A stretch of 64,000 bases of DNA, from the NCBI GenBank assembly GCA_965237955.1, contig OZ250169.1:6752001-6816000 (forward strand), in the 5' to 3' direction. Position numbers and translations under genes: made by a program. Below the pieces are notes generated by a model. The model ran no database searches. It saw only the letters and a program-made list of their open reading frames with translations, and was not told where the DNA came from. Each line of letters begins with the position of its first letter. Position 1 is the first letter of the stretch. Shown piece by piece: positions 2,518-18,329 of the stretch. Source of the DNA: Candidatus Marinacidobacterales bacterium (GTDB lineage Bacteria > Acidobacteriota > Vicinamibacteria > Marinacidobacterales > SMYC01).

Positions 2518-2859
2518 CTAGGCAGGCGGACGGGTCACTCGATCCAGAGATCGCATCACGGGGAAGACGACGAGAAGCTCGGGCGGAAGCGAGATCGCGC
2601 TGCCGCCGTGTTCCAGCGTCCAGTTCCCCGCTGTCGTGTGCGGTCCCACGAGCACGGCGCCGGCGCCCTCGCTCCCACGGAGAGATCGCAGTCGAAAGAC
2701 CACACGGTCCACTTCGAACCGCCGGGCCATCACCCGCCACGTTTCCGACCCGAGCTGCACCCAATCGCCGGGCCGAAGCTCGGCTGCGGAAAGCGGTTGC
2801 CGTGGCAATCGGATGCGCGACTGCTGGATCAGCCGCGCGATCCGATGCCAGAGGCTCAT
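2518..2859 (-). CDS. Small hypothetical protein, last gene of the psp-like operon
   Basis: 113-aa ORF whose ATG overlaps the pspA stop (ATGA), preceded by GGAGGA; LSAAELRPGDWVQLG resembles a small beta-barrel start. Confidence 0.65.
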   Translation of the reverse strand: MSLWHRIARLIQQSRIRLPRQPLSAAELRPGDWVQLGSETWRVMARRFEVDRVVFRLRSLRGSEGAGAVLVGPHTTAGNWTLEHGGSAISLPPELLVVFPVMRSLDRVTRPPA

Positions 2860-3084
2860 GACGTTTGTTCCTCCTTTTTCTTCTTCATCTTGTCTCGGAG
2901 TTTTTGCATGCGATCGTCGACGGCGTCGTTGACCGCGGAATCTTCAGCTCGACGCCTCAAGTGGTCCCCTCGAAGCTCGTCGTCGAGTTTCAGATACGAT
3001 CGCTCCTCCGCGGCCTGAAGCTCGACCCGCTCGCTGATGCGGTCGAACTCGCTCTGAAGGTTCGCACGTTGCACCCCGACCATA
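2856..3084 (-). pseudogene. pspA: PspA/IM30 family protein, C-terminal part separated by ISL3
   Basis: EFDRISERVELQAAEE...VDDRMQKLRDKM matches the PspA C-terminal pattern; in frame with the N-terminal part once the IS and one TSD copy are removed. Confidence 0.85.
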
Positions 3085-3092
3085 ACCTTTTT

Positions 3093-4476
3093 GGGTCTAC
3101 GCGGGTTCGTGTGGGTTGAAAACGGCATTTCTGGGTAATGGCGGAAGGAATGCCGCCACGATCTTCAGCTTGAGATATCCCTCGTCACGATAGCCGTAGG
3201 CGCGTCGTTGCAGAACACGGATTTTGTTGTTGACCCCTTCAACCAGTCCGAGACTGACTTTGTTCTCAGGATGACAGTAGGAGGCGATACCATCCCAATG
3301 GGACTCAATCATTCCGGCGAACTTCTGGTAGGGATGCAGGCGCTGCCATTTGAGGCTGTCTTTCCAACGTGTGAAAAAGGCGCGAGCCCCGCGTTCGGTG
3401 CGGTAATCCCAGAGTTGCCCGAAGGCCTCCTTCAAAACATAGGCGGTGTTCAGGCGCCGGTTGGCCTGGAGCAACTTCTTGAGTGCGCGGCGACCGTCCA
3501 GGCTCAGGTTCTCCCGCCGGGAAAGCAACGTGTAACGCTGCCCCTTGATATACGACCGGTCCTCGCCGCTGAGGCGTTTGTACTCACGGCGCCGGACCTC
3601 ATCGAGAGCCTTTGACAGGTGACGCATGATATGAAACTTGTCGAAGATGATCCGCGCATTGGGTGCGTTGTTAATCACCGAGTTCCGGAAGGGCTTCCAC
3701 ATATCCATGGCGGCCAGCTTGATACGGGCGCTTTTCTTCCCGCCCAGCGCCTTGAAGAACAAATCGATGTCGGTTTCTTTGCGACCCTCACCGCCCACCC
3801 AGATGGGACGCGCCCGCTCCAGGTCGCTGACAATGACACGATAGTTATGTCCCTTGCGGATGGAGATCTCATCGATACCGATGGCCCGAGGCGCCGGCAG
3901 CCCCGCCCGCTCGACTTGCTCTTGCATGTAGAGCTTATCCAGGTCCTTCACCGTAGTGTGGTGCAGACGTTCCATCTCGGCCACCGCCTTGTTCGGCATA
4001 TCCCGGCACAGCTTGCCCACATGCGTCGCAAAGCGCTGGGTGTAGCGCGGGTTGTTCGCCAGCCAGTCCAAGTGTTCTACATGCACACCACCGCACCCAC
4101 GACAGTTGACGCGCCAACGCTCGTATTCCAGATAGATCCGCCAGCCTGCCAACGACAGGTCGCGGACCCGGCACACTTGCTTGTCATAGCGCCCCCGGCA
4201 CCGATGCCCACAGTACGAGCACACGGCTGTTTTTTTCGCCTCTTGAGCTGGATGACGCGGGCGTATCGGTCACCGAATACACCGTTCAATCGGGCGCCAG
4301 CCACGAAACCTGGTAGCGCAAAAAGCGAGCGGATCGACTGGGGATTTTTCACTCGGTTAGCCTATCCGAAAAACGGATCACTTCTCAGCACCTGATGAAG
4401 TGCTGAATACCTTTTCCACACAATGAGTTACACTATTTCTCCGTCAGCATTCGCCCACAGATTTCCGCGTAGACCC
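3093..4476 (-). mobile_element. ISL3 family insertion sequence (1384 bp)
   Basis: Terminal IRs GGGTCTACGCGG...TGTGGG at both ends; 8-bp target duplication ACCTTTTT at 3085-3092 and 4477-4484. Confidence 0.95.
3097..4352 (-). CDS. ISL3 transposase in two overlapping frames (probable -1 frameshift at A-AAA-AAC, 4229-4236)
   Basis: Zn-finger CSYCG/CRGCG, IGIDEISIRKGHNY, MDMWKPF, FDKFH, EGVNNKIRVLQRRAYGYRD. Confidence 0.9.
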
Positions 4477-4940
4477 ACCTTTTTAATGGCCCGACGTGCC
4501 TCCCCTTGACGCATCTGCGCCTGCAGGAGCTCCAGCCGCGAGCGCGCCTTCTGGAGGCGGTCGTGCATCTGGGTAATGGCCTCATGGATCTCCTCGGTCT
4601 CCTCGCTTTGCGTTCGAAGCTCGTCGCGCAAGCGGTCGCGCTGACGCTCGGCTTGCTCGAGGCGGCGCACCATGTCGCGGGCGCCGTCTTCGTCGCCTTT
4701 TTTCATCGCTCTTTCGGAGGCTTCCTGCCATTGTTTCATGTCCTTTTCGTGGAACGCGATGCGGCTTCGAAGCCGGTCTTCGTTCGCCATCGCGCGCGCG
4801 ACCGCACGCTTGGCCGATTCGAGCTCCTCTTCCATATCGAGGACGAGCTGGTTGAGCGAGCGCTCGGGATCCTCGAACTTGATCAGGACCGCATCGATGC
4901 TGCCCTTTACGAGCAAGGTAAATCTTTGGGTAACGTTCAT
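4477..4940 (-). pseudogene. pspA: PspA/IM30 family protein, N-terminal part
   Basis: EDPERSLNQLVLDMEEEL...ARAMANE...WQEASERAMKKGDEDGAR coiled-coil pattern of PspA/Vipp1; reconstituted length about 230 aa. Confidence 0.88.
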
Positions 4941-4975
4941 GGTCAATCTCCTATCTGCCTATATGGTTGAGTTGG

Positions 4976-7900
4976 TTAGTACCAACCGACGAGCTGGCGG
5001 CCAAAGACACGAATCTGTTGCGCCAAACCCTCTCGCCGGTGTTCGAGATAAGCGGCAACCGTCATGAGCGCGACCCCGAGAAAAACACCTCCCACCCACA
5101 GCAGAAGCGGCTCGGTGGCGCGGATCATGATGACGAAGCACGCGAGATCGATGACGAGCGCGGCCGTCGACACGGTGAGAAGCGGACGGCTTCGGAGCCA
5201 GAAACTGGCCGTGCCGAATCCCACAGTGAGCAGCAACAGCACTGCCTGCCATGCCCACGTGATCTCGTCATAGAGTGCTAAGACCGGGGTCGCGTAGATG
5301 AACGCAGCCCCCGCGGTGAAGATGTGCCGACTCCACCGCGGTCCCATCTCCTCCGACAACAGAAGCGCCAGCGCCACCAAAGTGAATCCCGGCGCGAGCG
5401 AGTAGAACTCGAGGCCGACTCCTTGACCCGAGGCGATGGCGAAGAGGCCAAAGCCGAGAAACGACGCGGACAGCACCGATGGAAGCACTCGGTTGGCCTC
5501 GCGAGACGCAAGAATCAAGTAGAAGACGCTCGCGAGAAACAGGGGCCAGGGCTGCAAGCGGACAAGCGCAACCGCGCCACCGAGAAGCGCGAGCGATTGA
5601 CCGGTGAGGATCGACGACGACGCGAGCGACTGGCCGCGCTCGGTGCGCTTCCACAAAGCCGCGAGGCCGTATTGCAACACACCGGTCGCGAGCAACACAT
5701 ACGGTGCGCGACCGTTACCGAAGCTCACCCACCCCGCGTAGAAGCCGACGAGAACGCCGAGCAACAGCCACGCTTGCATCACCCACGCGTGGCCCGCGCT
5801 CTCATGGTGAAAGCTCCGGAGCGCGTGCCGCGTGGCAAACGCGGCGGCGATGGCGAGCATCGATCCGTAGTCCCACGTCGTGAAGATCTCGGTGGGCGCA
5901 AAACCCAGGAAGTAGCCGGACACGACGAAACACTCGAGCGCCGTCGTCCACAGTTGGAGCGGTTTCATCCCGCGGGCCTCGACCAGGACAATCCAGCCGA
6001 GCACGAGGGCCGCGAACAGCGGAAACCCTGATGCGATCGCCTCGACGAGTGCGAGCGGGAAAAACTCGTGAGCCGCCGCCCTCTCGAACCAGATCAAGCC
6101 ATGTGCAAGGACGAGGAGTAGGCTTCGATACGGCGTCTTGCGGTAGAGCATACCGATGAGAACGACGGTGACCGCGAGTGCCAGCGCCTCCGTTCCGACG
6201 AAGCCAAGCACGGCCACGACCGCCGTCATGCGCCAAAAGCGGACGAACCTCTCGACGCTGGGCACCAGGAACCGCGGCGCGAGCGCACGCGCGACCAACA
6301 CGCATCCGAGGGCTACCAGAAGCAACACCGGAACCGACTCGACGAGGCCGAGCGCCGCAAGATGGAACGGCACATACGTGACGAGAAACCCGAGCCCCAC
6401 CGCGGAGTCGGTCTCGTCTTTTTCTCTCAGGCCGTGCCACAGAATCGCCCAACCGAAGAGCGCGAGGATGACCGGTTCGATCGTCACAGCGACTGAGCTC
6501 GTACCCGTACCGAGAGCGACCCACAGCCATAGGACACCGAGCGCGCCGTGGCCGAGTACCGAGAGATGTGCGCCGAACGCCCACGTTGCTTTGGTCGCTT
6601 TTGTCGCTTTTGTCGCGTTTGCCCATCGCAACAGCACGACCGAGGCTACGAACAGCGCCTGTGTGGCGACGACGATCGTGACCATCGACGCCCCGTACGT
6701 GAACGCGAGCTCACCATGGATGCCGAGAGATAACGCACCGATTCCGGCGAGGATGACCGGTGCGAGCTCGAGTCGGTGGCCGAGCGCGAGTAAGAGCACG
6801 CCGGCCAACAAGACTTCGAGAGCACCTCCGCTCGTGAAACTGATGACACCAGAAATACCGATGACGCCGGCCCAGAAAAACGCCGGCCAGGTGAGGTGGC
6901 GCGAGCCGCGGCTTAGCGCGACGACACCGATCATCACGAGCGCGAGGAGCTCCATCCCGTAGGCGCCGCCCCACGCGAGAATCGTCGCGCCGAGCGCCGC
7001 GTGCGCGGCAACGAGCCACTCGCGTCTTCTGGTGATGAAGACCGACAGCAACGCCAGGGCGAGCGCGAGAGGAGCGACGATCTTGGCGCCGGCGAAGCCG
7101 GACAACGCGACGATTGCGATCAAGTGGATGGATGCACAAATCGCGTGTGCGCGACCGGCCTGCTGATATCGTCGGGCGAGTGCGGTGAAAAACAACGCGA
7201 GCCCGAGCTGCCCGAAGCTCAGCTTCGCAGCCGGGGCCACCAACCCCAGGATGTCCGTCAGGCTCACCACTGTTTCCACGGCGATGTGCGGCATCAACCT
7301 CGGGAGAAACACGTAGCCCACAACTGATGCGCACATCGCTAAAACGCGCGCGGGTACGTTGTCGTAGCGGAAGCTCCATCGGAACAAAAGCGTCGCGATC
7401 GCACAAAAGACGATTGCCGGAACCCGTCCGGAAGCATCAAGAAACGCAAACGGTCCCGCAACTACCATGAGCGCGAATCCCACTGCCAAAAACGCCACCG
7501 AGCGACGCGGCCACTCACTCGGACGCGCACGAAGCGATCGGACGAGCGCGTAGTAGTACTCTTCTCCGGTGGTGACGAGCGCGGCGCCCAGAATCAAGAT
7601 CGGAAGCGCGATGTAGGACGTCGGCAGACTCAAAATGCTCAAGCTCGCCGCGTAGAGAACAGCGAGAGCCAGAAACGGCAGTGCGTGGACCGGGCGATCG
7701 ACGCACCCATTAGCGGCGCGGCGGTCGCGATGGAAGAGGAATCGATTGATGTGTTGCGAGCCGACGTGGAACACACCACCGAAACCGATCGCGGCGACGA
7801 TGTAACCCCAGCCGGTCACGTTTAGCAGCGAGAGCAACGGCAAGCTCACCGTCAGCAGAGCGAACGCGACCGGATAGAGAACCCCGTCGTAGCGGAGCGC

Positions 7901-8281
7901 CTCCTTCAGGCAACGGCGGAACGCGCTCAAGAGTGCGATGATCGAGACGCCGTAAACGATCGCGCCTCCAGGAGCGCTCAGCAGATCCAAGTACGCCGCA
8001 CCCCACGACAGGACCGGCACGAGGACCGAGAACAAAAGTTGTAGTGCCGAGCCTGCGATTGGCAGACGCAAGCGGTTTTTGAGCAGCTCACCCGCGCCGA
8101 AGACGCCGAGCGAGCCCGCCACCAAAGTGAGAAACTGCGCCGTCACGGACATCCCGGCCCATTGGGATTCCACGAGGCGATACACCGAGACCGCCAGCAC
8201 CAGGGCGCCGACCGCGAGAAGCCAGCGGATGCCCTGAAGCGACCCGAGCCCGGTGGACTCCGTCGAATGTGTAGCTTTCAT
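4976..8281 (-). CDS. Very large polytopic membrane protein (1101 aa), DUF2157/SCO7613-like termini
   Basis: Almost continuous hydrophobic helices; RBS GAGGAGG upstream; family resemblance from memory only. Confidence 0.8.
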   Translation of the reverse strand: MKATHSTESTGLGSLQGIRWLLAVGALVLAVSVYRLVESQWAGMSVTAQFLTLVAGSLGVFGAGELLKNRLRLPIAGSALQLLFSVLVPVLSWGAAYLDLLSAPGGAIVYGVSIIALLSAFRRCLKEALRYDGVLYPVAFALLTVSLPLLSLLNVTGWGYIVAAIGFGGVFHVGSQHINRFLFHRDRRAANGCVDRPVHALPFLALAVLYAASLSILSLPTSYIALPILILGAALVTTGEEYYYALVRSLRARPSEWPRRSVAFLAVGFALMVVAGPFAFLDASGRVPAIVFCAIATLLFRWSFRYDNVPARVLAMCASVVGYVFLPRLMPHIAVETVVSLTDILGLVAPAAKLSFGQLGLALFFTALARRYQQAGRAHAICASIHLIAIVALSGFAGAKIVAPLALALALLSVFITRRREWLVAAHAALGATILAWGGAYGMELLALVMIGVVALSRGSRHLTWPAFFWAGVIGISGVISFTSGGALEVLLAGVLLLALGHRLELAPVILAGIGALSLGIHGELAFTYGASMVTIVVATQALFVASVVLLRWANATKATKATKATWAFGAHLSVLGHGALGVLWLWVALGTGTSSVAVTIEPVILALFGWAILWHGLREKDETDSAVGLGFLVTYVPFHLAALGLVESVPVLLLVALGCVLVARALAPRFLVPSVERFVRFWRMTAVVAVLGFVGTEALALAVTVVLIGMLYRKTPYRSLLLVLAHGLIWFERAAAHEFFPLALVEAIASGFPLFAALVLGWIVLVEARGMKPLQLWTTALECFVVSGYFLGFAPTEIFTTWDYGSMLAIAAAFATRHALRSFHHESAGHAWVMQAWLLLGVLVGFYAGWVSFGNGRAPYVLLATGVLQYGLAALWKRTERGQSLASSSILTGQSLALLGGAVALVRLQPWPLFLASVFYLILASREANRVLPSVLSASFLGFGLFAIASGQGVGLEFYSLAPGFTLVALALLLSEEMGPRWSRHIFTAGAAFIYATPVLALYDEITWAWQAVLLLLTVGFGTASFWLRSRPLLTVSTAALVIDLACFVIMIRATEPLLLWVGGVFLGVALMTVAAYLEHRREGLAQQIRVFGRQLVGWY

Positions 8282-8304
8282 CGTTGCCTCCTCATCCCCC
8301 CTAT

Positions 8305-8321
8305 TACAAACTCGATGCCAA
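8305..8321 (-). promoter_or_regulatory. Sigma54 -24/-12 promoter for the membrane protein-pspA operon
   Basis: Minus strand TTGGCATCGAGTTTGTA = GG-N10-GT variant of TGGCAC-N5-TTGCA, about 25 nt upstream of the ATG at 8281. Confidence 0.75.
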
Positions 8322-8383
8322 TCGGACGTAGACGTATAAGCCTTTGCCGTCCAGCACTTAAGGGAATGCGCTTGTAGAAAGGG

Positions 8384-8429
8384 GGTCCAGGGTGCATGAT
8401 GGAAACTGCACCTTGGGACCCGTGGTGCA
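8384..8429. promoter_or_regulatory. Candidate upstream activator sequence for the NtrC-type regulator
   Basis: Inverted repeat GGTCCAGGGTGCA-N10-TGCACCTTGGGACC plus a third GGTGCA half-site, 65-110 bp upstream of the -24 element. Confidence 0.55.
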
Positions 8430-8438
8430 CGAAGACCG

Positions 8439-10472
8439 ATGCTGCAGGATCTGGCCCTCTACACGGAGCTTTCGATCTTCCTCGTCGGCACGTTCATGTA
8501 CGGCTTCCTGACGCGCGAGCTTTTCCGCCAGCGCGCCATTCTTCCGGGCAACCGCCCCATCCGGGTTCTCGCGCTGAGCCTCACGATCTGGTACGCCGGC
8601 TCTCTTCTCGACGAGCTCGCAGCGATCCTGTTGCCGGGCCTGATTCCCGGATCGGCGTTCTGGTCAGCGGTGGGTCCCGCGGTCGACGTCGTGCGCGCGT
8701 TCGGTTTTCTGGCGAGCTTCTCGCTTCTCGCACACGCGATCTGGCGCATGGTCGATCCACGGGTCACCTGGCGCTGGCTTTCAATCTGCTACGTGAGCCT
8801 GTTCCTGTTTCTCCCGCCCGCGTTCGACATCTTGCGGGAGCGGCAGATGGTCCTGGCGAACGTCAGCCGCGACACCTACCAAGTGTTCCTTGGACACGTC
8901 ACGCTCACGACGCTCATCTCTGTGTGCCTCATCCTGTGGGCGCGATCGAAACAGATGCGTCGCGACCTGGCGCATTTCTTGCGTTGGCTTCTGGTGACGC
9001 TCGTCGTCGTGGAAGCGCTCGTGCTTCTCGGCGCCACCGTCATCGACGTATGGTCGGAGCCGTTGTGGCGCATTCTCGTTTCGTCGTCGGGCCTCGTTCT
9101 AGGGGTAACGTTTCTATACTTCGTGCGCGCTTACAACTTGCTGAGCTTGTCACTGTCCAACCGGAGTCTCCGTCACTTCGCGAGCATACTTGCTCTCCTC
9201 TTTTTGATACTGCTCGCGGGACCGGCTCTCGGTGCTTCCGGCAATCCGGTGTTTCACCGCGTGCTCGCGTGGGGTTTGCTGCTCGCGGTCTTGGCCGGAC
9301 TCGGGTTCGGTCCGATCACGCGGTGGGCGGTTCGACGATCGCCACGGATGGCACGTCTTTTCGGCCGCAGCATTTCCCGAGACGATGTCTCTGAGCTCAC
9401 CGAAAAACTGCAGGACCTGAACCTCTCCGAGGATGACGCCAAGCAACTGGTTGCTTCTGAAGTCGGTCGCTGGGTCGGCGCCGCAACACGTTTCCTGAAC
9501 ACACCCGAACCGAGTGCGATAGTCCTGTGGTCGTATTTCGGAGAAGCGGGAACACGGGCGTTCAACCGGCTGCGGGCACCCACGGTCGTTGTTGCCGACG
9601 CACTCGTAGCCGGCGAGCTACACGCGGTCTTCCCCATCCGTGTCGGTGGCAACCTCGAAGCCGTGTTCACGATCCCGTCGAGTGCGGTCGGCGGCGGCTA
9701 CGAAGACGGCGAGATGGAGAGCATCCAGCTCGTGTTGAGCCAGCTCGCCGCCGTGATCGAGATCCGGCGCCTCCTCGAAGCACGACTCGCCGCGGAGCGA
9801 AGCCAAGCCGAGCAGGAACGGTTGTCGATGCTCGGAATGGTCTCCGCGTCTCTCGCGCACGAGCTGAAGAATCCTTTGTCATCAATGAAAGCGCTCGCGC
9901 AAACCGTGCAAGAGGAGCTCTCACGCGACGACGCGGACAGCGAGCAAGCAAAGGATCTCGGGCTCATCGTCGAGCAAGTCGACCGGTTGAACAGCATCGC
10001 TCGTGAAGTTCTCGGGTTTTCGAAGCCGGGGGCAAGCGCGGAATCGACCGAGCTCGCGTCGATCATCGAGTCCGCCGCGTATGTGCTCGACCACGAAGCA
10101 CGGCGTCGTGGCATAACGATCGACCTCGACGCGGTTACCGGCAAAAGCGATGCTCCCGGTGCTCCGTCCACGTGGCAAACGGTTGTGTTCAACTTGATGC
10201 TGAACGCCATCCGCCACGCGCCGGACGGCTCGACGGTGCGCTTGCGACTGTCGCGCAACAGCGACAACATCCTGTTCGAATGTGAGAACCAAGGCCCTGC
10301 CATCGAAGAGGACGTGGCGTCGCGGCTCTTCGATCCCTTTGTCACCGGAGCGAGCGGAACCGGGCTCGGCCTCGCTCTCGTCGACCGACGCGTCCGAGAG
10401 ATCGGCGGTGTCATCGAGCTCGTCAACGAGCCCGACCACATCGTCTTCCGAGTCAAGGTTCGAACGCTATGA
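8439..10472 (+). CDS. Membrane sensor histidine kinase (about 9 TM, GAF-like, HisKA, HATPase; PrsK-like architecture)
   Basis: SLAHELKNPL H-box, NLMLNAIRH N-box, LFDPFVT, GTGLGLAL; hydrophobic N-terminal third. Confidence 0.92.
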   Translation: MLQDLALYTELSIFLVGTFMYGFLTRELFRQRAILPGNRPIRVLALSLTIWYAGSLLDELAAILLPGLIPGSAFWSAVGPAVDVVRAFGFLASFSLLAHAIWRMVDPRVTWRWLSICYVSLFLFLPPAFDILRERQMVLANVSRDTYQVFLGHVTLTTLISVCLILWARSKQMRRDLAHFLRWLLVTLVVVEALVLLGATVIDVWSEPLWRILVSSSGLVLGVTFLYFVRAYNLLSLSLSNRSLRHFASILALLFLILLAGPALGASGNPVFHRVLAWGLLLAVLAGLGFGPITRWAVRRSPRMARLFGRSISRDDVSELTEKLQDLNLSEDDAKQLVASEVGRWVGAATRFLNTPEPSAIVLWSYFGEAGTRAFNRLRAPTVVVADALVAGELHAVFPIRVGGNLEAVFTIPSSAVGGGYEDGEMESIQLVLSQLAAVIEIRRLLEARLAAERSQAEQERLSMLGMVSASLAHELKNPLSSMKALAQTVQEELSRDDADSEQAKDLGLIVEQVDRLNSIAREVLGFSKPGASAESTELASIIESAAYVLDHEARRRGITIDLDAVTGKSDAPGAPSTWQTVVFNLMLNAIRHAPDGSTVRLRLSRNSDNILFECENQGPAIEEDVASRLFDPFVTGASGTGLGLALVDRRVREIGGVIELVNEPDHIVFRVKVRTL

Positions 10473-11857
10473 GCAAAATCAATGCCCACATCCTCGTGTG
10501 CGACGACGAGCCTTCGGCCCGCCGGGGTGCGATCCGCGCTCTCGGCAAAGACTACGCCTGCGTCGAGTGCGCGAACGGCGTCGAGTGCCTCGATGCGCTG
10601 AGCCACGAGACGTTCGATATCGTGCTCCTCGACATGCGCATGCCGGTCATGGACGGCCAGACGGCGCTCGAGGAGATCAGGTCGCGCCCCTCGCCGCCTC
10701 CCGTCGTCGTTATTACTGCGGATTTTGGCCTCGCGACCGCGATTGCTGCGGTGAAGGCGGGCGCCGAGAACTTCATCGCCAAGCCGTACGAGATTGACGC
10801 GCTTCGCCACGTCGTTCAGAAGACGCTCGAGCAGAACCGTTTGAAGCGCGAGAACCGCCACCTCGAGGAAGAAGTTCGACGCCTTCGGGGACCGGGCCCG
10901 TTGATCGGCGCATCGAACGCGATCCGTCGCGTCCTCGACACGATCGACCGCGTGGCTCCGGCGACGGCGACAGTGCTCATCCTCGGCGAAAGCGGCACCG
11001 GGAAAGAGCTAGTCGCGCGCCGGATCCACGAACTCTCGAGTGCTGCCGGCGGTCCGTTCGTGACCGTGAACTGCTCCGCGATCCCGGATACGCTCGTCGA
11101 AAGCGAGCTCTTCGGGCACAAGAAAGGCGCGTTCACGGGAGCGGACCGAGATCGCGCCGGCAAGTTTCAAGAAGCGCACCGCGGCACGCTTTTTCTCGAC
11201 GAGATCGGCGACATGGCGCTCGACGCCCAAGCGAAGCTCCTTCGAGTCCTTCAGGAAGGTGAAGTCGAACCCTTGGGCGGCGGCAAGACGGTAAGAGTGG
11301 ACGTGCGCGTAGTCGCGGCAACCCATCGCGACCTGAAACAACGCGTCGAAGAAGGGACGTTCCGCGAAGACTTGCTCTTCCGACTGAAGGTCGTCGACGT
11401 GCCGATGCCGCCGCTTCGTGAGCGTGCCGGCGACATTGCGATCCTCGCACGGCATTTCCTCGCGAGTTTCGGGAACGGGAAGCTCGAGCTCTCCCCCGAG
11501 GCGGAAGCGTTGCTCACCGCCTACGGATGGCCGGGAAACGTGAGAGAGCTTCGAAACGCGAGCGAGCGAGCATCGATCTTTTGTCGTGACAATGTCGTCC
11601 GTCCGGAAGATCTACCGCAAGAAGTCGGAGGCGTCTCGGCACCGGCAGCATCGGCGCTCACATGGGATCCCACCGACAACTTCCAAACGGCGAAGCAGAA
11701 AATCGTCGAGCGCTTCGAGCGCGACATCCTCACCACCGCTCTCGAAAAGCATGGTGGTAACATCTCGAAGGCGGCACGCGCACTCGGGCTGCACCGTCAG
11801 AACTTGCAGCAGAAATTGCGCCAGCTCGAAATCTCAGCCGAGACGTTTCGTACCTAA
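10469..11857 (+). CDS. Sigma54-dependent response regulator (REC-AAA+-Fis HTH)
   Basis: LLDMRMP receiver, GESGTGKE, ESELFGHKKGAFTGA, WPGNVREL, GNISKAARALG. Confidence 0.96.
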   Translation: MSKINAHILVCDDEPSARRGAIRALGKDYACVECANGVECLDALSHETFDIVLLDMRMPVMDGQTALEEIRSRPSPPPVVVITADFGLATAIAAVKAGAENFIAKPYEIDALRHVVQKTLEQNRLKRENRHLEEEVRRLRGPGPLIGASNAIRRVLDTIDRVAPATATVLILGESGTGKELVARRIHELSSAAGGPFVTVNCSAIPDTLVESELFGHKKGAFTGADRDRAGKFQEAHRGTLFLDEIGDMALDAQAKLLRVLQEGEVEPLGGGKTVRVDVRVVAATHRDLKQRVEEGTFREDLLFRLKVVDVPMPPLRERAGDIAILARHFLASFGNGKLELSPEAEALLTAYGWPGNVRELRNASERASIFCRDNVVRPEDLPQEVGGVSAPAASALTWDPTDNFQTAKQKIVERFERDILTTALEKHGGNISKAARALGLHRQNLQQKLRQLEISAETFRT

Positions 11858-13134: not shown

Positions 13135-14729
13135 TCGCAATCGTTCTCGTTATTCTCATTCTCGTGGTCGTCGTCATGGGCAGGGGAGGCTACGAGCCTT
13201 GGGCCGCGTTAGCTCTGGAGCTCGGGGCGGCCGGGTGCGCGATTGCGGTCGTTTTTGTGTCGAGCTTTCTCGGCAACGAACGGAACAACCTGCTCGAGCA
13301 GCATCTCGCCTGGAAGGAACTGCCGTGGACCTTTCGGCATCCCTTCTGGTCGCGTCTCACCGGCACCGGGCGTCGTGCGCGCAGGAGCGACGTCGAAATC
13401 CTGACGCCAGTGGCGATAGTGCCGACGAGGCACACGCTGTTGTTCGGGATGCCGTTTCGACGAACAGGGCTCAGCGCGCCTTTGTGCTTGCTGACGCTTT
13501 GGATCGGTCTCTCCGTCATTCCATTCGAGCGCGGTGTCCTCGAGGTCCTGTCACCCGAAGCCCATGCGCTGCGCTCCGAGGTTGAGGCATTCACCGCCGA
13601 CGCAGCTCCGCGGGCGCCAATGAGTCTCGTTCCGTTTCTGACGCTGCGAGCTCTCTGGTTATGGCTGGCATATCTGGTGTTCTTCTATGCGGGCTTTTCG
13701 ATTTCGAAGCGCAGGGATGGTATCCGCCGGCTCACGAGCGGTCTCATTATGTTCGGAGCGTTTCTTGCGGCGATGGGTCTCGTGTCGTCTCTAGTCGGCT
13801 GGCGTCATCTCCTCGGAGATACGACGGCTGAGATACAGCTCCGTGCGGCCGCGGGTTTTGGCAATCCGAATCACTACGCAGCGTTACTTTGTATGATCTT
13901 TTTCTGTGGGCTCGGAGCTCTCATCGCTTCCCGGCGAGACTTCGAGCCAGGAAGATCGCGGTCTCGTTCTTCAAGCCTGCGCATTCGACACCAGGAGGAT
14001 CTAGCGAAGACGATCATCATCGGCGTGGCGCTCGTTCTCGTCGCCCTCGGCATTTTGTTCTCTCTCTCCCGCTCTGCCATCGCTTTCACTATGTTGACGA
14101 CGGCTCTCTTTGTTGTATTCACGCGGCGTGGCAACGGTAGCCCCGCGAAAGCCGTTGTCGGAATCGTCTTACTCGCAACCCTGGCTCTCGCGGTCTGGAT
14201 CGGAATCGGTCCGGTGTTCGAACGTTTTGAAAAACTATCCGGGAGACTGGAAATCGACATGAGCCGTCGCCAAGTCGTCGTCGACACCTTGCCGGCGGCG
14301 GTTGATTTCTGGATCACCGGGTCCGGTCTGGGCTCCTATCGCTATATTACCGCGCAGTACCGCAGCTTTCCTGGCCGCATATTCTACTCGTGGGCCCACA
14401 ACGATTACCTTCAGCTGCTCGTGGAGCTCGGCGTGTTCGGGCTCGTTCTCCTGCTCTGGACGATGGCTCGGATCGTGGCGCTCGGGCGGCGCACCCGCGA
14501 AAGGCTCGCGTCACACTCTGCCCTGGCGCACCTCCACGCGGGCTATATCTGCGCGGCGATTGCCATCGCCCTCCACAGCTTCACGGATTTCAGCCTGCAC
14601 CTCCCCGCCAATTTCATGTTGCTTTCGATCGTCGTGGGCGTCGTCGTAGGGATGGAGCCTGCCGCGCCTACTGGTCGAGCGGACTCGCCTCAACATCGCT
14701 GGTCGCAGCCACAACGAGTTCACGAGTAG
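13131..14729 (+). CDS. O-antigen ligase/Wzy_C family membrane protein
   Basis: FGNPNHYAA, SLSRSA, ITGSGLGSY, WAHNDYLQLLVELG, LHSFTDFSLH. Confidence 0.9.
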   Translation: MIAIVLVILILVVVVMGRGGYEPWAALALELGAAGCAIAVVFVSSFLGNERNNLLEQHLAWKELPWTFRHPFWSRLTGTGRRARRSDVEILTPVAIVPTRHTLLFGMPFRRTGLSAPLCLLTLWIGLSVIPFERGVLEVLSPEAHALRSEVEAFTADAAPRAPMSLVPFLTLRALWLWLAYLVFFYAGFSISKRRDGIRRLTSGLIMFGAFLAAMGLVSSLVGWRHLLGDTTAEIQLRAAAGFGNPNHYAALLCMIFFCGLGALIASRRDFEPGRSRSRSSSLRIRHQEDLAKTIIIGVALVLVALGILFSLSRSAIAFTMLTTALFVVFTRRGNGSPAKAVVGIVLLATLALAVWIGIGPVFERFEKLSGRLEIDMSRRQVVVDTLPAAVDFWITGSGLGSYRYITAQYRSFPGRIFYSWAHNDYLQLLVELGVFGLVLLLWTMARIVALGRRTRERLASHSALAHLHAGYICAAIAIALHSFTDFSLHLPANFMLLSIVVGVVVGMEPAAPTGRADSPQHRWSQPQRVHE

Positions 14730-15617
14730 CGGCCGCGGCGCCACCCAACACGAGGAGGACTCCCGGCGTAGCTAGTCCGCCCCCAACAGCTCCGCCCGCC
14801 GCCGCCGCCGACGTCACGATACCGGCGGAGCTGACGAACGCGCTAATGCCGACTGCCTGAAAACCCGCCGGGACCGCGGGGGCGCCTGGCGATACTGCGT
14901 TCACGACAATTCCTGGATTCGAGCCGGTGAACCATGCGATGGGCGCACGTCGTTGGCACTCGCCGGCGGTCTCGACGACAGCAACGAACTCTTCGGTGCG
15001 CACCGAGTCGAATGCACGGTCGATGGCTTCGACGTAGTAGTGGATGCTCGTCGTATCCGCAGAGGCTTTCGGAAGCACGCCATAGAATTTGCCATCCTCG
15101 TGAGAGATGGACATGTCCACGAAGTAGAGATCGGGATGCTGGGCCGCGCGGAAGAACAAACGCGCGAGCTGGACGTTGGCCCACGGCTCGATCTCGGCGT
15201 TCAACATCGGAAACTCGTCACCCGGCATGCATTCGAGTGGCTCGTGTTCGATGGTCGGGAGAGCGGTAGACGACTGGATCCGATCGGAGGAAAACGGCTC
15301 CGGGACGAGAAAGCGTTGTGCGCCTAACGTAACGACCCGCGCCTCGGGAACGAACGGCGTCCGACAGTCACGCTCAGCTCGATACGCCCGCTTCGCACCC
15401 GCGTCGACCTCGAAACAGCTCTCGAGAACGAACGGCATGCCAACACGCACATCGAAGACCTCATCGACGTCATACGTGGCGCCGTCATCCGAGATGCGAA
15501 ACGCGTACATGCCAGCCGGGAGTCGCGATACGAAAAACGTTCCGGCCGAATCCGTCGTAGCCTCGAAACGCTCGCCCGTCGTGAGCGAGCGAGCCTCGAC
15601 CGTCATCTCCCCGAGGG
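14661..15617. repeat. Copy 1 of 957-bp direct repeat (5'-truncated duplicate of gene 17095-18183)
   Basis: Near-identical to 17088-18044 (offset 2427), about 4 substitutions seen by eye. Confidence 0.95.
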
Positions 15618-15827
15618 ACCATCGACTTGAATCAACGCAGTCGACTTGTAGAGCGGCGTTTGTACGAAGGCCAGGATCGCCGCGTCGAGCCAAGTCGCGA
15701 GCGCGACGGCGAACACGATCCACCGCCTTTTGAGAACCGTGTAGTAGTAGGAGTGGATGGTGACTTGGGGCTCGGCGTTGCAAGCGAGCTCTTCCCGGGA
15801 GGCATGCTGAGCGGATTGAACGGTCAT
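15603..15827 (-). pseudogene. N-terminal fragment of Wzc/GumC polysaccharide co-polymerase
   Basis: YYYTVLKRRWIVFAVAL...FVQTPLYKSTALIQVD Wzz-type N-terminus, then breaks into repeat copy 1. Confidence 0.75.
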
Positions 15828-15870
15828 CTATCCTCTCTCCGATCGGAAGCCGAACTAAGAAAAGTGGCCA

Positions 15871-15892
15871 TGGCTCCTCAGCAGGGATTCGA
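15871..15892 (-). other. Isolated tRNA 3'-end fragment (att-site-like)
   Basis: Minus strand TCGAATCCCTGCTGAGGAGCCA = T-loop 3' half, acceptor strand and CCA, with no 5' half. Confidence 0.55.
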
Positions 15893-16105
15893 GTCACGGA
15901 GGCGGCTGAGCAGGTTCCTCTCCCCCACGCGGGTCAATGATTCCAGCTTGGAGAAGGCCAGAAACCCGAAGGTGCCCTTGATTACTAATCTTCTTATTAA
16001 TCGCTCTAATCTTTGAGAACTTTAGTTTTCGGCAGTTCTTTTTTTCTACTTTCTTATAGGGTGGCAAATGGAGTTGTACTCACGGATCACACGGAGTACA
16101 CGGAC

Positions 16106-17085
16106 GGCGTGCATGAATCAGTTCGGGACACGCACGGAACCCTTTGGCGGCCCAACTCTCTCCCCGGCGATCGCTTGGGATTCAGGCTTACCCAGCTCAG
16201 CCATCCGGTTCAATACATTGCACCCGATCCTTGCCTCCCGCTTCTGCGATTCGTGGCCGCGCGCGAGAAGGCTGTTTCCGAGCGTGCGCTTGTACCTGAA
16301 GAAAAGATTCTCGACGGCGCCCTGTCGTCGATACCCTGACTCCCGCTGCCAGCCTTGGCGCCCGACTTTGCGAATCGTCTCCAGGGTCGCGTTCCGCTGC
16401 GCCCACGTGCCCTCGGCGCCGTCCGAAGGCACCGCCCCTCGTCGAGGTGGGATCACGATCTTGATGTCCGCGGTGCCGACCCCACCGAGCAGCTCGTACA
16501 CCGACCGAGTATCGTAGGCCCCATCGGCTGTGAAACGTCGGATCGGAGAGTCGACCTGTTCGAGCAGACAGGGGGACAGTGGACGGATCGTCCTCGCTGC
16601 TCTTCGTGCGCGTCGCCGCCACGATGAAGCCGTCGTCATCCACGCCGACATGCAGCTTCCGCCATTGTCGACGCGCCTTCGAGCTCTTGTGCCTGTGGAC
16701 GTGCCGCTCACCGGCACCCGAGAGTTTGAGTCCTTTCGAGTCGACGATCAGATGGAACGCGCCATCATGCGCTCTGGTGGGGAAGGCACGTCAACGCCGT
16801 CACGATTGCCAGATTCGAGTAGCGCGGCTGGCCACCGCGGCGGCGGTTCTTCGGTGGTGTCCACGCTGCGCGCGCCTCGTCTGAGAACCAAACGGTGATG
16901 TCGCCACGGCTCCTGAGGCCACGCTCGTACTCCCGCCAGTTGGTCACGCGATACTTCGTCTTGTATTCGCGGTTCACTCTGGTGGACTTGCGCGCAGCCA
17001 TGGGTTCATCTCCTCGATATTCGATGTATCGAGAAGCTCAGTCGAAGCGGTTGCCGGAGTCAAGAGCTATTCGTGCACCAAAGCC
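16106..17085 (-). mobile_element. IS5 family (IS903-like) element, one end eroded
   Basis: End GGCTTTGGTGCACGAAT (minus, 17069-17085) versus eroded GGCGTGCATGAAT at about 16106. Confidence 0.8.
16118..17001 (-). pseudogene. IS5 family transposase, frameshifted/internally deleted
   Basis: YRVTNWREYERGLRSRGDITVW, ADGAYD, WQRESGYRRQGAVENLFFRYK spread across different frames. Confidence 0.88.
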
Positions 17086-17087
17086 CC

Positions 17088-18044
17088 GCCGCGCCTACTG
17101 GTCGGGCGGACTCGCCTCAACATCGCTGGTCGCAGCCACAACGAGTTCACGAGTAGCGGCCGCGGCGCCACCCAACACGAGGAGGACTCCCGGCGTAGCT
17201 AGTCCGCCCCCAACAGCTCCGCCCGCCGCCGTCGCCGACGTCACGATACCGGCGGAGCTGACGAACGCGCTAATGCCGACTGCCTGAAAACCCGCCGGGA
17301 CCGCGGGGGCGCCTGGCGATACTGCGTTCACGACAATTCCTGGATTCGAGCCGGTGAACCATGCGATGGGCGCACGTCGTTGGCACTCGCCGGCGGTCTC
17401 GACGACAGCAACGAACTCTTCGGTGCGCACCGAGTCGAATGCACGGTCGATGGCTTCGACGTAGTAGTGGATGCTCGTCGTATCCGCAGAGGCTTTCGGA
17501 AGCACGCCATAGAATTTGCCATCCTCGTGAGAGATGGACATGTCCACGAAGTAGAGATCGGGATGCTGGGCCGCGCGGAAGAACAAACGCGCGAGCTGGA
17601 CGTTGGCCCACGGCTCGATCTCGGCGTTCAACATCGGAAACTCGTCACCCGGCATGCATTCGAGTGGCTCGTGTTCGATGGTCGGGAGAGCGGTAGACGA
17701 CTGGATCCGATCGGAGGAAAACGGCTCCGGGACGAGAAAGCGTTGTGCGCCTAACGTAACGACCCGCGCCTCGGGAACGAACGGCGTCCGACAGTCACGC
17801 TCAGCTCGATACGCCCGCTTCGCACCCGCGTCGACCTCGAAACAGCTCTCGAGAACGAACGGCATGCCAACACGCACATCGAAGACCTCATCGACGTCAT
17901 ACGTGGCGCCGTCATCCGAGATGCGAAATGCGTACATGCCAGCCGGGAGTCGCGATACGAAAAACGTTCCGGCCGAATCCGTCGTAGCCTCGAAACGCTC
18001 GCCCGTCGTGAGCAAGCGAGCCTCGACCGTCATCTCCCCGAGGG
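17088..18044. repeat. Copy 2 of 957-bp direct repeat
   Basis: Matches 14661-15617; begins right at the IS5 end. Confidence 0.95.
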
Positions 18045-18183
18045 GCGCGTGCGACGACCGGTCCACGATGCGTCCGCCGAGCATCCCCACGACGTCCACG
18101 GCCCCGCCCTCGGCGCCAGCGCGCCCCGCCAGCAGCGGAAGAATCGACAAGACGATCCAAGCGTTCGAAAAATATCTCTTCAT
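17095..18183 (-). CDS. Secreted protein with carboxypeptidase-regulatory-like domain and Gly/Ala-rich hydrophobic C-terminal tail
   Basis: Signal peptide MKRYFSNAWIVLSILPLLAGRAGA; ATTDSAGTFFVSRLPAGMY motif; RBS AAGGAGG. Confidence 0.75.
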   Translation of the reverse strand: MKRYFSNAWIVLSILPLLAGRAGAEGGAVDVVGMLGGRIVDRSSHAPLGEMTVEARLLTTGERFEATTDSAGTFFVSRLPAGMYAFRISDDGATYDVDEVFDVRVGMPFVLESCFEVDAGAKRAYRAERDCRTPFVPEARVVTLGAQRFLVPEPFSSDRIQSSTALPTIEHEPLECMPGDEFPMLNAEIEPWANVQLARLFFRAAQHPDLYFVDMSISHEDGKFYGVLPKASADTTSIHYYVEAIDRAFDSVRTEEFVAVVETAGECQRRAPIAWFTGSNPGIVVNAVSPGAPAVPAGFQAVGISAFVSSAGIVTSATAAGGAVGGGLATPGVLLVLGGAAAATRELVVAATSDVEASPPDQ

Positions 18184-18329
18184 GACAGCCCTCCTTGCGG
18201 GAGCGGCAGAACTCCGTTGACAAAACCCGAACCCGCTTCCAGAATGAAACAAGACCAGCGAACTTTCGAACATCACACAACACCGTTTACCTGAAGCGCC
18301 GAACCGCCTCGGCGCAAGAACCGCGGACC

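Follow-up and report, generated by a model that had tools for sequence, protein, structure and literature searches.

The five-gene locus

A five-gene unit was recognized in a 64,000-nucleotide stretch of DNA (the window; contig OZ250169.1, positions 6,752,001 to 6,816,000, assembly GCA_965237955.1) from a Candidatus Marinacidobacterales bacterium of the phylum Acidobacteriota. Open reading frames (ORFs) of the 64-kb window place the genes for a giant membrane protein (the giant), PspA and a small protein on the minus strand, with a histidine kinase and an NtrC-type regulator on the plus strand. This unit, which we call the cassette, has three unnamed protein parts, namely the giant, the small protein and the sensor domain of the kinase. 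Its features are as follows.

2518..2859, minus strand: small protein gene, 113 residues, with an ATGA overlap with the pspA stop codon
2856..3084, minus strand: 3' part of pspA (C-terminal polymer-forming region), severed by ISL3; an open frame with the element omitted
3085..3092, minus strand: downstream copy of the 8-bp target-site duplication
3093..4476, minus strand: ISL3 insertion sequence (IS), 1384 bp, no part of the system; transposase at 3097-4224 plus a short upstream frame
4477..4940, minus strand: 5' part of pspA, 155 codons, N-terminal helix and coiled-coil hairpin, including the upstream 8-bp duplicate; its frame runs 15 codons into the IS
4976..8281, minus strand: giant polytopic membrane protein, 1101 residues, about 35 predicted membrane helices
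8305..8321, minus strand: sigma54 -24/-12 promoter TTGGCATCGAGTTTGTA, 24 nt upstream of the giant's start codon
8391..8412, no strand: predicted enhancer site 1, palindrome GGTGCA-N10-TGCACC, about 90 bp upstream of the promoter; the genome's best match
8424..8445, no strand: predicted, degenerate enhancer site 2, 33 bp from site 1 and over the kinase start codon
8439..10472, plus strand: histidine kinase, 677 residues, about nine predicted membrane helices, soluble linker, HisKA (H474), HATPase
10469..11857, plus strand: NtrC-type regulator, 462 residues, receiver (D55), AAA+ domain with GAFTGA, Fis-type helix-turn-helix (HTH)

Most of this architecture had been described in a first-pass annotation of the same DNA and was recovered here: the nearly all-transmembrane 1101-residue minus-strand protein (ORF 4976-8281, 26-37 predicted segments), the translationally coupled 113-residue protein (ORF 2518-2859), the -24/-12 promoter (read at 8321-8305), the GGTGCA/TGCACC repeat and the divergent kinase of about nine membrane segments (7-10 predicted) with its REC-AAA-Fis regulator. 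The PspA of about 230 residues that it listed was right as to family (PF04012) and wrong as to an intact gene, since pspA is split by ISL3 and 230 residues is its length with the element left out, a break that the annotation did not mention.

The giant and pspA are linked in two phyla

Homologs of the giant, 64 by word search and 342 by profile, fall into two groups. Group 1 comprises 30 genome loci titled Acidobacteriota or 'uncultured bacterium' and 54 metagenome loci; group 2 comprises 69 loci (from the best 80 of 272 stretches), mostly of Planctomycetota, plus one Myxococcota and one Polyangia record and some titled only 'bacterium'. The closest homologs of the giant are Acidobacteriota records. 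Linkage was counted over loci with enough flank, and counts are given in the order group-1 genomes, group 2 and group-1 metagenomes, sets that overlap.

The gene directly after the giant is pspA in 24/24, 55/55 and 43/43 loci; the scripted metagenome count was 42/43, and its single miss, L261, is a scoring artefact. The small gene follows pspA less strictly (18/22, 39/53 and 35/37). The kinase family is linked in 26/27 group-1 genome and 24/25 metagenome loci, always divergently, and in 32/46 group-2 loci, always downstream, while the regulator adjoins the kinase in 23/24, 21/26 and 18/18. When the search was started from pspA (80 of 159 stretches kept), the giant was found upstream in 72 of 77 loci, and four of the five misses are Myxococcales. 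Despite the differing gene order, the giant profiles of the two groups align over 1139 columns (P 100%). The giant-pspA linkage thus persists through a change in gene order between phyla, and the co-occurrence check proposed by the first-pass annotation holds in Acidobacteriota and Planctomycetota for giant and pspA and for kinase and regulator alike. Loci that naturally lack the kinase or the small gene point to the giant-PspA pair as the core of the cassette. No other neighbour recurs across the groups, and neither a Vps4-like ATPase, nor cargo, nor an outer-membrane part is among the conserved neighbours. In a quick tree, the group-1 and group-2 PspAs each cluster (SH-aLRT 91 and 99; the tree included 26 of 52 planctomycete rows). 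No match came from a plasmid search, for which a single distant homolog served as query. Cultured carriers are Planctomicrobium spp., Novipirellula spp., Aporhodopirellula aestuarii, Rubripirellula obstinata and Stieleria marina.

A kinase-tied enhancer and a sigma54 promoter

The kinase contains 7-10 hydrophobic segments and HisKA and HATPase domains, with H474 present and no large extracytoplasmic domain; its N-terminal 440 residues matched no family, NCBIfam included. A widespread family of ORFs of about 970-1000 residues weakly matches its membrane and linker region (G000:C1:1999202-2002108; loci L282-L290). The motifs of the regulator are intact (D55, GAFTGA and both Walker motifs), and its recognition helix, HRQ[NS]LQ[QK]K, is common to both phyla. 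The genome holds rpoN, and the window promoter has the same TTGGCA-N7-TTGTA form as the E. coli pspA promoter, which reads TTGGCACGCAAATTGTA and bears out the TTGTA variant given for it in the first-pass annotation.

Upstream of the sigma54 site, a TGCAG-N8-CTGCA palindrome, usually doubled, is present in 26 of 27 group-1 regions and at two or more sites in 22, where shuffles give 3.3 regions (maximum 8) and 0.37 for two or more sites; promoter and enhancer are therefore both conserved, as the first-pass annotation had anticipated for these intergenic regions. Among group-2 loci with a linked kinase the enhancer is found in 28 of 29 and is paired with a sigma54 site in 20 of 29 (shuffles 3.7 and 0.13), against 4 of 14 loci without a linked kinase; 20 further group-2 loci, 16 of them with the motif, were unclassifiable for kinase linkage. 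Five genomes lack a linked kinase: two of them have the enhancer and encode the kinase at another place in the genome; in the other three, which lack the enhancer, no such kinase was found. The occurrence of the enhancer follows the kinase family. Moreover, a scan of the 8.13-Mb genome for enhancer plus promoter, using a matrix trained with the window's site left out, placed the window site first at 38.5, with the next at 25.4 and the best shuffled scores at 26.3 and 24.1. Because the window site alone lies above the shuffled range, the predicted regulon is probably this operon only.

PspF is docked by PspA at its YLW patch, Y51/L52/W56 (PMC3791423). These positions read E/L/A in the window regulator, and Y or W occupies them in none of the 38 relative regulator loops compared. 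The regulator also has a receiver domain and scores 285 bits on the PspF model TIGR02974, whose cut-off is 443.55. With the YLW patch missing, feedback of the PspF type was rejected. In agreement with the first-pass annotation, no pspF, pspB or pspC is present at the locus; the genome search returned two PspC-domain matches elsewhere and no PspB.

That annotation had also raised the alternative of a PrsK/PrsR-like kinase and regulator acting on the downstream exopolysaccharide genes. In such a case TPR and Wzy genes would also be served, and the adjacency of pspA would be due to chance. In favour of this, kinase and PrsK are of similar size, TIGR02915 gives the regulator 377.5 bits and a TPR gene follows. 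However, that score falls below the TIGR02915 cut-off of 502.6, and the true PrsK of this genome (TIGR02916, 382.8 bits, over the cut-off) is encoded about 217 kb away. The window kinase is absent from the 20 PrsK-model matches, its N-terminus matches no NCBIfam model, and the TPR and Wzy genes of the window occur in none of the loci L004-L273. Based on synteny, the sub-cut-off score and the true PrsK elsewhere, the PrsK/PrsR explanation was rejected and retains hardly any credibility.

The giant may form a helical solenoid in the membrane

The 1101-residue giant has no match in Pfam or NCBIfam. Membrane segments number 26-34 by hydropathy and 37 by profile, and its predicted model is confident and all-helical (pLDDT 87.6, pTM 0.66). 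The top structural matches of this model are TPR- and HEAT-like repeats at generic scores: Foldseek returned six rows at E < 0.001 with TM-scores of 0.09-0.13, and the best VIA hit, at Z 11.0, was to a designed repeat. No specific fold or transporter family emerged from these whole-model searches, and no internal repeats were detected when they were looked for. The TPR/HEAT-like matches suggest a solenoid of helical hairpins in the membrane, such that the giant may be an alpha-solenoid-like hairpin array. Conservation peaks at both ends of the protein, including a polar C-terminal helix with an invariant E1080, and the C-terminal helix is amphipathic (shuffle p 0.03).

Likenesses to named families lie under the family cut-offs. 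DUF2157 (PF09925) appears at the N-terminus of 5 of 15 homologs (E 5e-6 to 1e-3, all under the 32.4-bit cut-off), and SCO7613_CTERM (NF047321) at the C-terminus of 5 of 39 (28.8-38.7 bits over nearly the whole model, under the 45-bit cut-off); the window protein is matched by neither. The giant of the Novipirellula cassette (G061) scores 38.1 bits on SCO7613_CTERM, under the same cut-off. With 14 DUF2339 proteins, profile comparison (hhalign) gave a probability of 3.6% and an E of 0.012 over the first three helices, the reversed control giving 0.1%, and a PF10101 (DUF2339) scan of the giant and its homologs gave no match. In the Atlas, the named clusters most like the C-terminal part are those of DUF2339 (0.85), which we treat as a lead and no more. 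A further giant-related membrane family of 1,100-2,400 residues (proteins P0261-P0328) was seen in Myxococcota and planctomycetes, some members being labelled DUF2157 or carrying TPRs.

Could the giant act without PspA? Arc3A (PA5114 of Pseudomonas aeruginosa), a DUF2339-type protein with 35 predicted membrane helices, prevents the build-up of lysophospholipid (PMC8926400; PMC12663445) and is induced by a two-component danger signal (PMC8926400). The giant, likewise of about 35 predicted helices and with no obvious catalytic site, could by analogy be the main effector of a lipid-detoxifying defence against a rival's phospholipase, with PspA co-induced in parallel and unbound. The Atlas look-alikes and a rare, patchy and often-lost distribution would suit such a defence module. 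However, the profile comparison gives a probability of no more than 3.6%, over the first three helices, and the DUF2339/Arc3A link is an analogy only; there is no PF10101 match, the partner is PspA and not Arc3B, and control is by sigma54. Of nine loci of other SCO7613-type giants, moreover, eight show no pspA at a distance of up to 1.5 kb (by a profile of limited reach), whereas the cassette subfamily is never seen without it. We consider this defence explanation unlikely, though it is the most serious of the rivals.

A second rival is suggested by the N-terminus, where the weak DUF2157 (LiaI-LiaF-TM) likeness (PMC11237479) would fit a LiaF-like or PspC-like co-sensor that feeds back on the kinase, leaving PspA to act on the membrane alone; a kinase without a large extracytoplasmic domain would suit an intramembrane partner of this kind. 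Against this, 14 Planctomycetota loci keep the giant with pspA although no kinase is linked, and in 10 of these the enhancer is missing too; a Toastrack domain is absent from the giant, and some 35 helices would exceed the need of a feedback subunit. A mainly co-sensing role is thus quite improbable.

The solenoid-like model also speaks for a third rival, in which the operon would serve to build or export membrane (as vesicles, internal membranes or a secretion-type scaffold) and not to repair it. Planctomycetes, with their elaborate membranes, are numerous among the carriers. Budding and cutting of membranes is an activity of ESCRT-III proteins (PMC10936438). Only 3 of 200 sampled Planctomycetota contain the giant, which argues that the cassette is not core to the planctomycete cell plan, and none of its conserved neighbours is a Vps4-like ATPase, a cargo or an outer-membrane part; membrane building is accordingly given little weight, as is the co-sensor.

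The small protein has a predicted SH3-like fold

Homologs of the small protein are mostly about 100 residues long. The predicted model consists of a cationic amphipathic N-terminal helix (p 0.014 for amphipathicity) and a seven-stranded SH3/KOW-like barrel (pLDDT 72.6), and the protein has no match in Pfam or NCBIfam. The small proteins of the two phyla are homologous (hhalign 94%). Comparison with EF-P domain I gave a Z of 7.9 and an rmsd of 1.9 over 61 aligned residues, while Foldseek returned no match at E < 0.001; the EF-P likeness may reflect merely a common SH3-like arrangement, and no role in translation is claimed. At three planctomycete loci (L102, L097 and L088), the ORF picked after pspA encodes a small hydrophobic protein that is not SH3-like.

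pspA is interrupted by ISL3 in this genome

The window pspA fragment scores 83.9 bits on PF04012 and the intact gene of the relative at L004 scores 97.1, against a curated cut-off of 33.9, which places both in the PspA/IM30/Vipp1 family. Residues 4-220 of the L004 PspA align with residues 4-216 of Vipp1 (6ZVR; E 4.6e-21); the interrupted window copy fails in full-length alignment. The intact relative's protein falls far under the E. coli PspA equivalog TIGR02977 (76 bits, cut-off 242.95).

The break follows codon 155, and a 230-residue frame is open once the element is left out. The element is identified as ISL3 by its DDE_Tnp_ISL3 transposase, 24-nt inverted ends and 8-bp target duplication, and 17 full copies of at least 99.8% identity are present in the genome; the clean duplication and these copies rule out an assembly error. 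In 4 of 4 other DNA runs, from four studies, contigs bridge the site and skip 1392 bases at a depth similar to that of the flanking genes. The intact allele is for this reason taken as the normal state and the insertion as recent, and the break as a normal state is ruled out. ISL3 removes the C-terminal third of PspA here and likely separates the small gene from its promoter. In E. coli, the fragment PspA(1-144) is soluble and is missing the region required for oligomers and membrane targeting (PMC6003685); by this comparison the window copy likely forms no working polymer, and the cassette in this genome is probably non-functional as a polymer-forming system.

Several further observations concern pspA and its insertions. 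The ISL3 transposase is apparently encoded in two frames, which share a stretch at seven consecutive A's (window 3093-4476), and an internally deleted ISL3 form that skips 719 bases is present in 8/8 runs. Two IS families have entered pspA within a few bases of each other, ISL3 (window 4477-4484) and an IS200/IS605-type tnpA element (L005 12980-13775; compare L004 8468-8490), at a spot just past the coiled-coil hairpin that is among the AT-richest patches of the gene. This may be a hotspot or may reflect selection for dropping the polymer-forming region. In a genome of the same family (L142, G005:C37, 7996-9100), the small gene is kept, pspA has an internal stop and a long Lys run, and the giant, kinase and regulator are lost, with flanking BON and EVE-like genes as in the window. 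The host genome has two further pspA genes, one (L001 1489-2607) preceded by a 132-residue gene that by eye resembles a CesT/Tir-type chaperone and one (L003 1384-3627) by a large AAA-type ATPase gene, contexts that resemble ones catalogued in PMC11237479. Elsewhere in the window, near-identical duplicate genes with a carboxypeptidase-regulatory-like domain (14668-15897 and 17095-18276) flank a DDE transposase fragment (16118-16717).

Comparison with known PspA systems

The cassette resembles a hybrid of two known systems and is a member of neither. As in the Lia system of Bacillus subtilis (liaIH-liaGFSR), a two-component system is linked and a membrane gene lies directly upstream of the PspA homolog, and the membrane protein has the weak, under-cut-off DUF2157 (LiaI-LiaF-TM) likeness noted above; in Lia, under LiaRS, LiaI is encoded upstream of liaH and anchors LiaH (PMC9239133), and the membrane parts of LiaI and LiaF are equated with DUF2157 (PMC11237479). 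Unlike Lia, the cassette has a membrane protein of about 35 helices instead of few, a REC-AAA-Fis regulator working through sigma54 instead of REC-wHTH, no Toastrack or HAMP match and an extra SH3-like protein. With E. coli Psp (pspF, pspABCDE) it shares the form of the sigma54 promoter, a divergent enhancer-binding protein in the Acidobacteriota layout and a PspA effector. It differs from Psp in its activator, a receiver-containing protein with a dedicated kinase and no YLW patch; in addition, the operon has no pspB or pspC, pspA is not the first gene and PspA falls below the TIGR02977 cut-off. The hybrid would combine the two-component control and upstream membrane anchor of Lia with the sigma54 promoter and enhancer of Psp.

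The Planctomycetota layout is also like the Streptomyces PspA-PspAA-HisKin-REC+wHTH operon (PMC11237479, Table S3) in its PspA, small protein, multi-pass kinase and regulator; it differs in a beta-barrel small protein without a Pfam PspAA match, an NtrC-type regulator and the giant gene upstream. SCO7613_CTERM/DUF2157 giants share near full-length under-cut-off matches with homologs of the giant, but the other SCO7613-type members examined mostly (8/9) have no adjoining pspA; for such proteins PMC8313934 offers only a guess of glycerol transport. Archaeal and eukaryotic ESCRT systems encode a Vps4-like ATPase with the ESCRT-III gene, a conserved neighbour that the cassette lacks.

The contexts catalogued in the tables of PMC11237479 (the web app not being covered) include neither a giant membrane gene with pspA nor a REC-NtrC regulator, so that the cassette is absent from these tables. 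The partners given in PMC9239133 for Acidobacteriota PspA are band-7, NfeD and HTH proteins, and planctomycetes are not mentioned in the portion available. No description of the cassette was found in the literature searched, a search that left most subscription papers outside its coverage; the OpARA data of PMC9239133 may bear on novelty.

Model for the cassette

We hypothesize that the conserved five-gene cassette is an inducible system for membrane repair, similar to Lia and Psp, and that its giant protein anchors and positions the polymer of the ESCRT-III-like PspA, a reading that we favour with moderate confidence. In this model the membrane kinase would phosphorylate the NtrC-type regulator, which would then bind the tandem TGCAG-N8-CTGCA sites and activate sigma54 transcription of giant, pspA and small gene, with no PspF-type feedback of PspA on the regulator; the evidence argues strongly for this chain. 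Somewhat less firmly, the giant would be the membrane partner and anchor of PspA, filling the role of LiaI or PspBC, and the SH3-like small protein would be a dispensable peripheral subunit. The rationale for the anchor is that giant and pspA stay together even in loci that have lost the kinase or the small gene, and that LiaI, which anchors LiaH, is likewise encoded upstream and is equated with DUF2157. Most tentatively, the signal may be lipid or bilayer damage sensed within the membrane, and the giant itself may handle damaged lipid, by analogy with Arc3A. The phosphorelay-driven sigma54 PspA system with the giant as partner, first put forward in the first-pass annotation, thus gains support from two-phylum synteny, the conserved promoter and enhancer, the tie between enhancer and kinase and the loss of the YLW patch.

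Several points weigh against this model. Binding between giant and PspA, expression of the cassette and the nature of the stimulus are matters that we infer. RNA runs X15, X16, X17 and X20 gave mostly IS coverage, together with a few short fragments close to pspA and the small gene, which is uninformative either way on expression. The links of the giant to DUF2157, SCO7613 and DUF2339 are all under family cut-offs, and the hydrophobic moment of the PspA N-terminal helix is modest (0.39, shuffle p 0.115). The locus sets overlap and their members include non-independent kin, and the quick tree leaves the monophyly of the two PspA groups unsettled. With few candidates scored per genome, the giant was found in 4 of 60 relatives (G027 counted as a non-match), in none of 300 other sampled genomes of the host's phylum and in the 3 of 200 Planctomycetota, and the cassette is often decayed near the host (window, L005, G005); rarity and decay together indicate that it is accessory.

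A bolder form of the repair model, which we put forward as possible rather than probable, is that the giant, as an alpha-solenoid embedded in the membrane, nucleates the bacterial ESCRT-III polymer, determines its shape and couples it to the removal of damaged lipid. Such a solenoid would be a dedicated upstream adaptor of a kind not known for PspA/Vipp1.

The cassette bears on how PspA, Vipp1 and LiaH are placed on the membrane and switched on beyond a few model species. In it, a subfamily of PspA appears always to be joined to a giant membrane protein. Predictions at base level are in hand for the regulator, the site that it would bind and the promoter, and the cultured carriers make the cassette testable. 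It also offers a route into giant polytopic proteins, for which the sole tested look-alike, Arc3A, defends membranes. If true, the solenoid adaptor would be the first mechanism for DUF2157/SCO7613/Arc3A-like giant membrane proteins.

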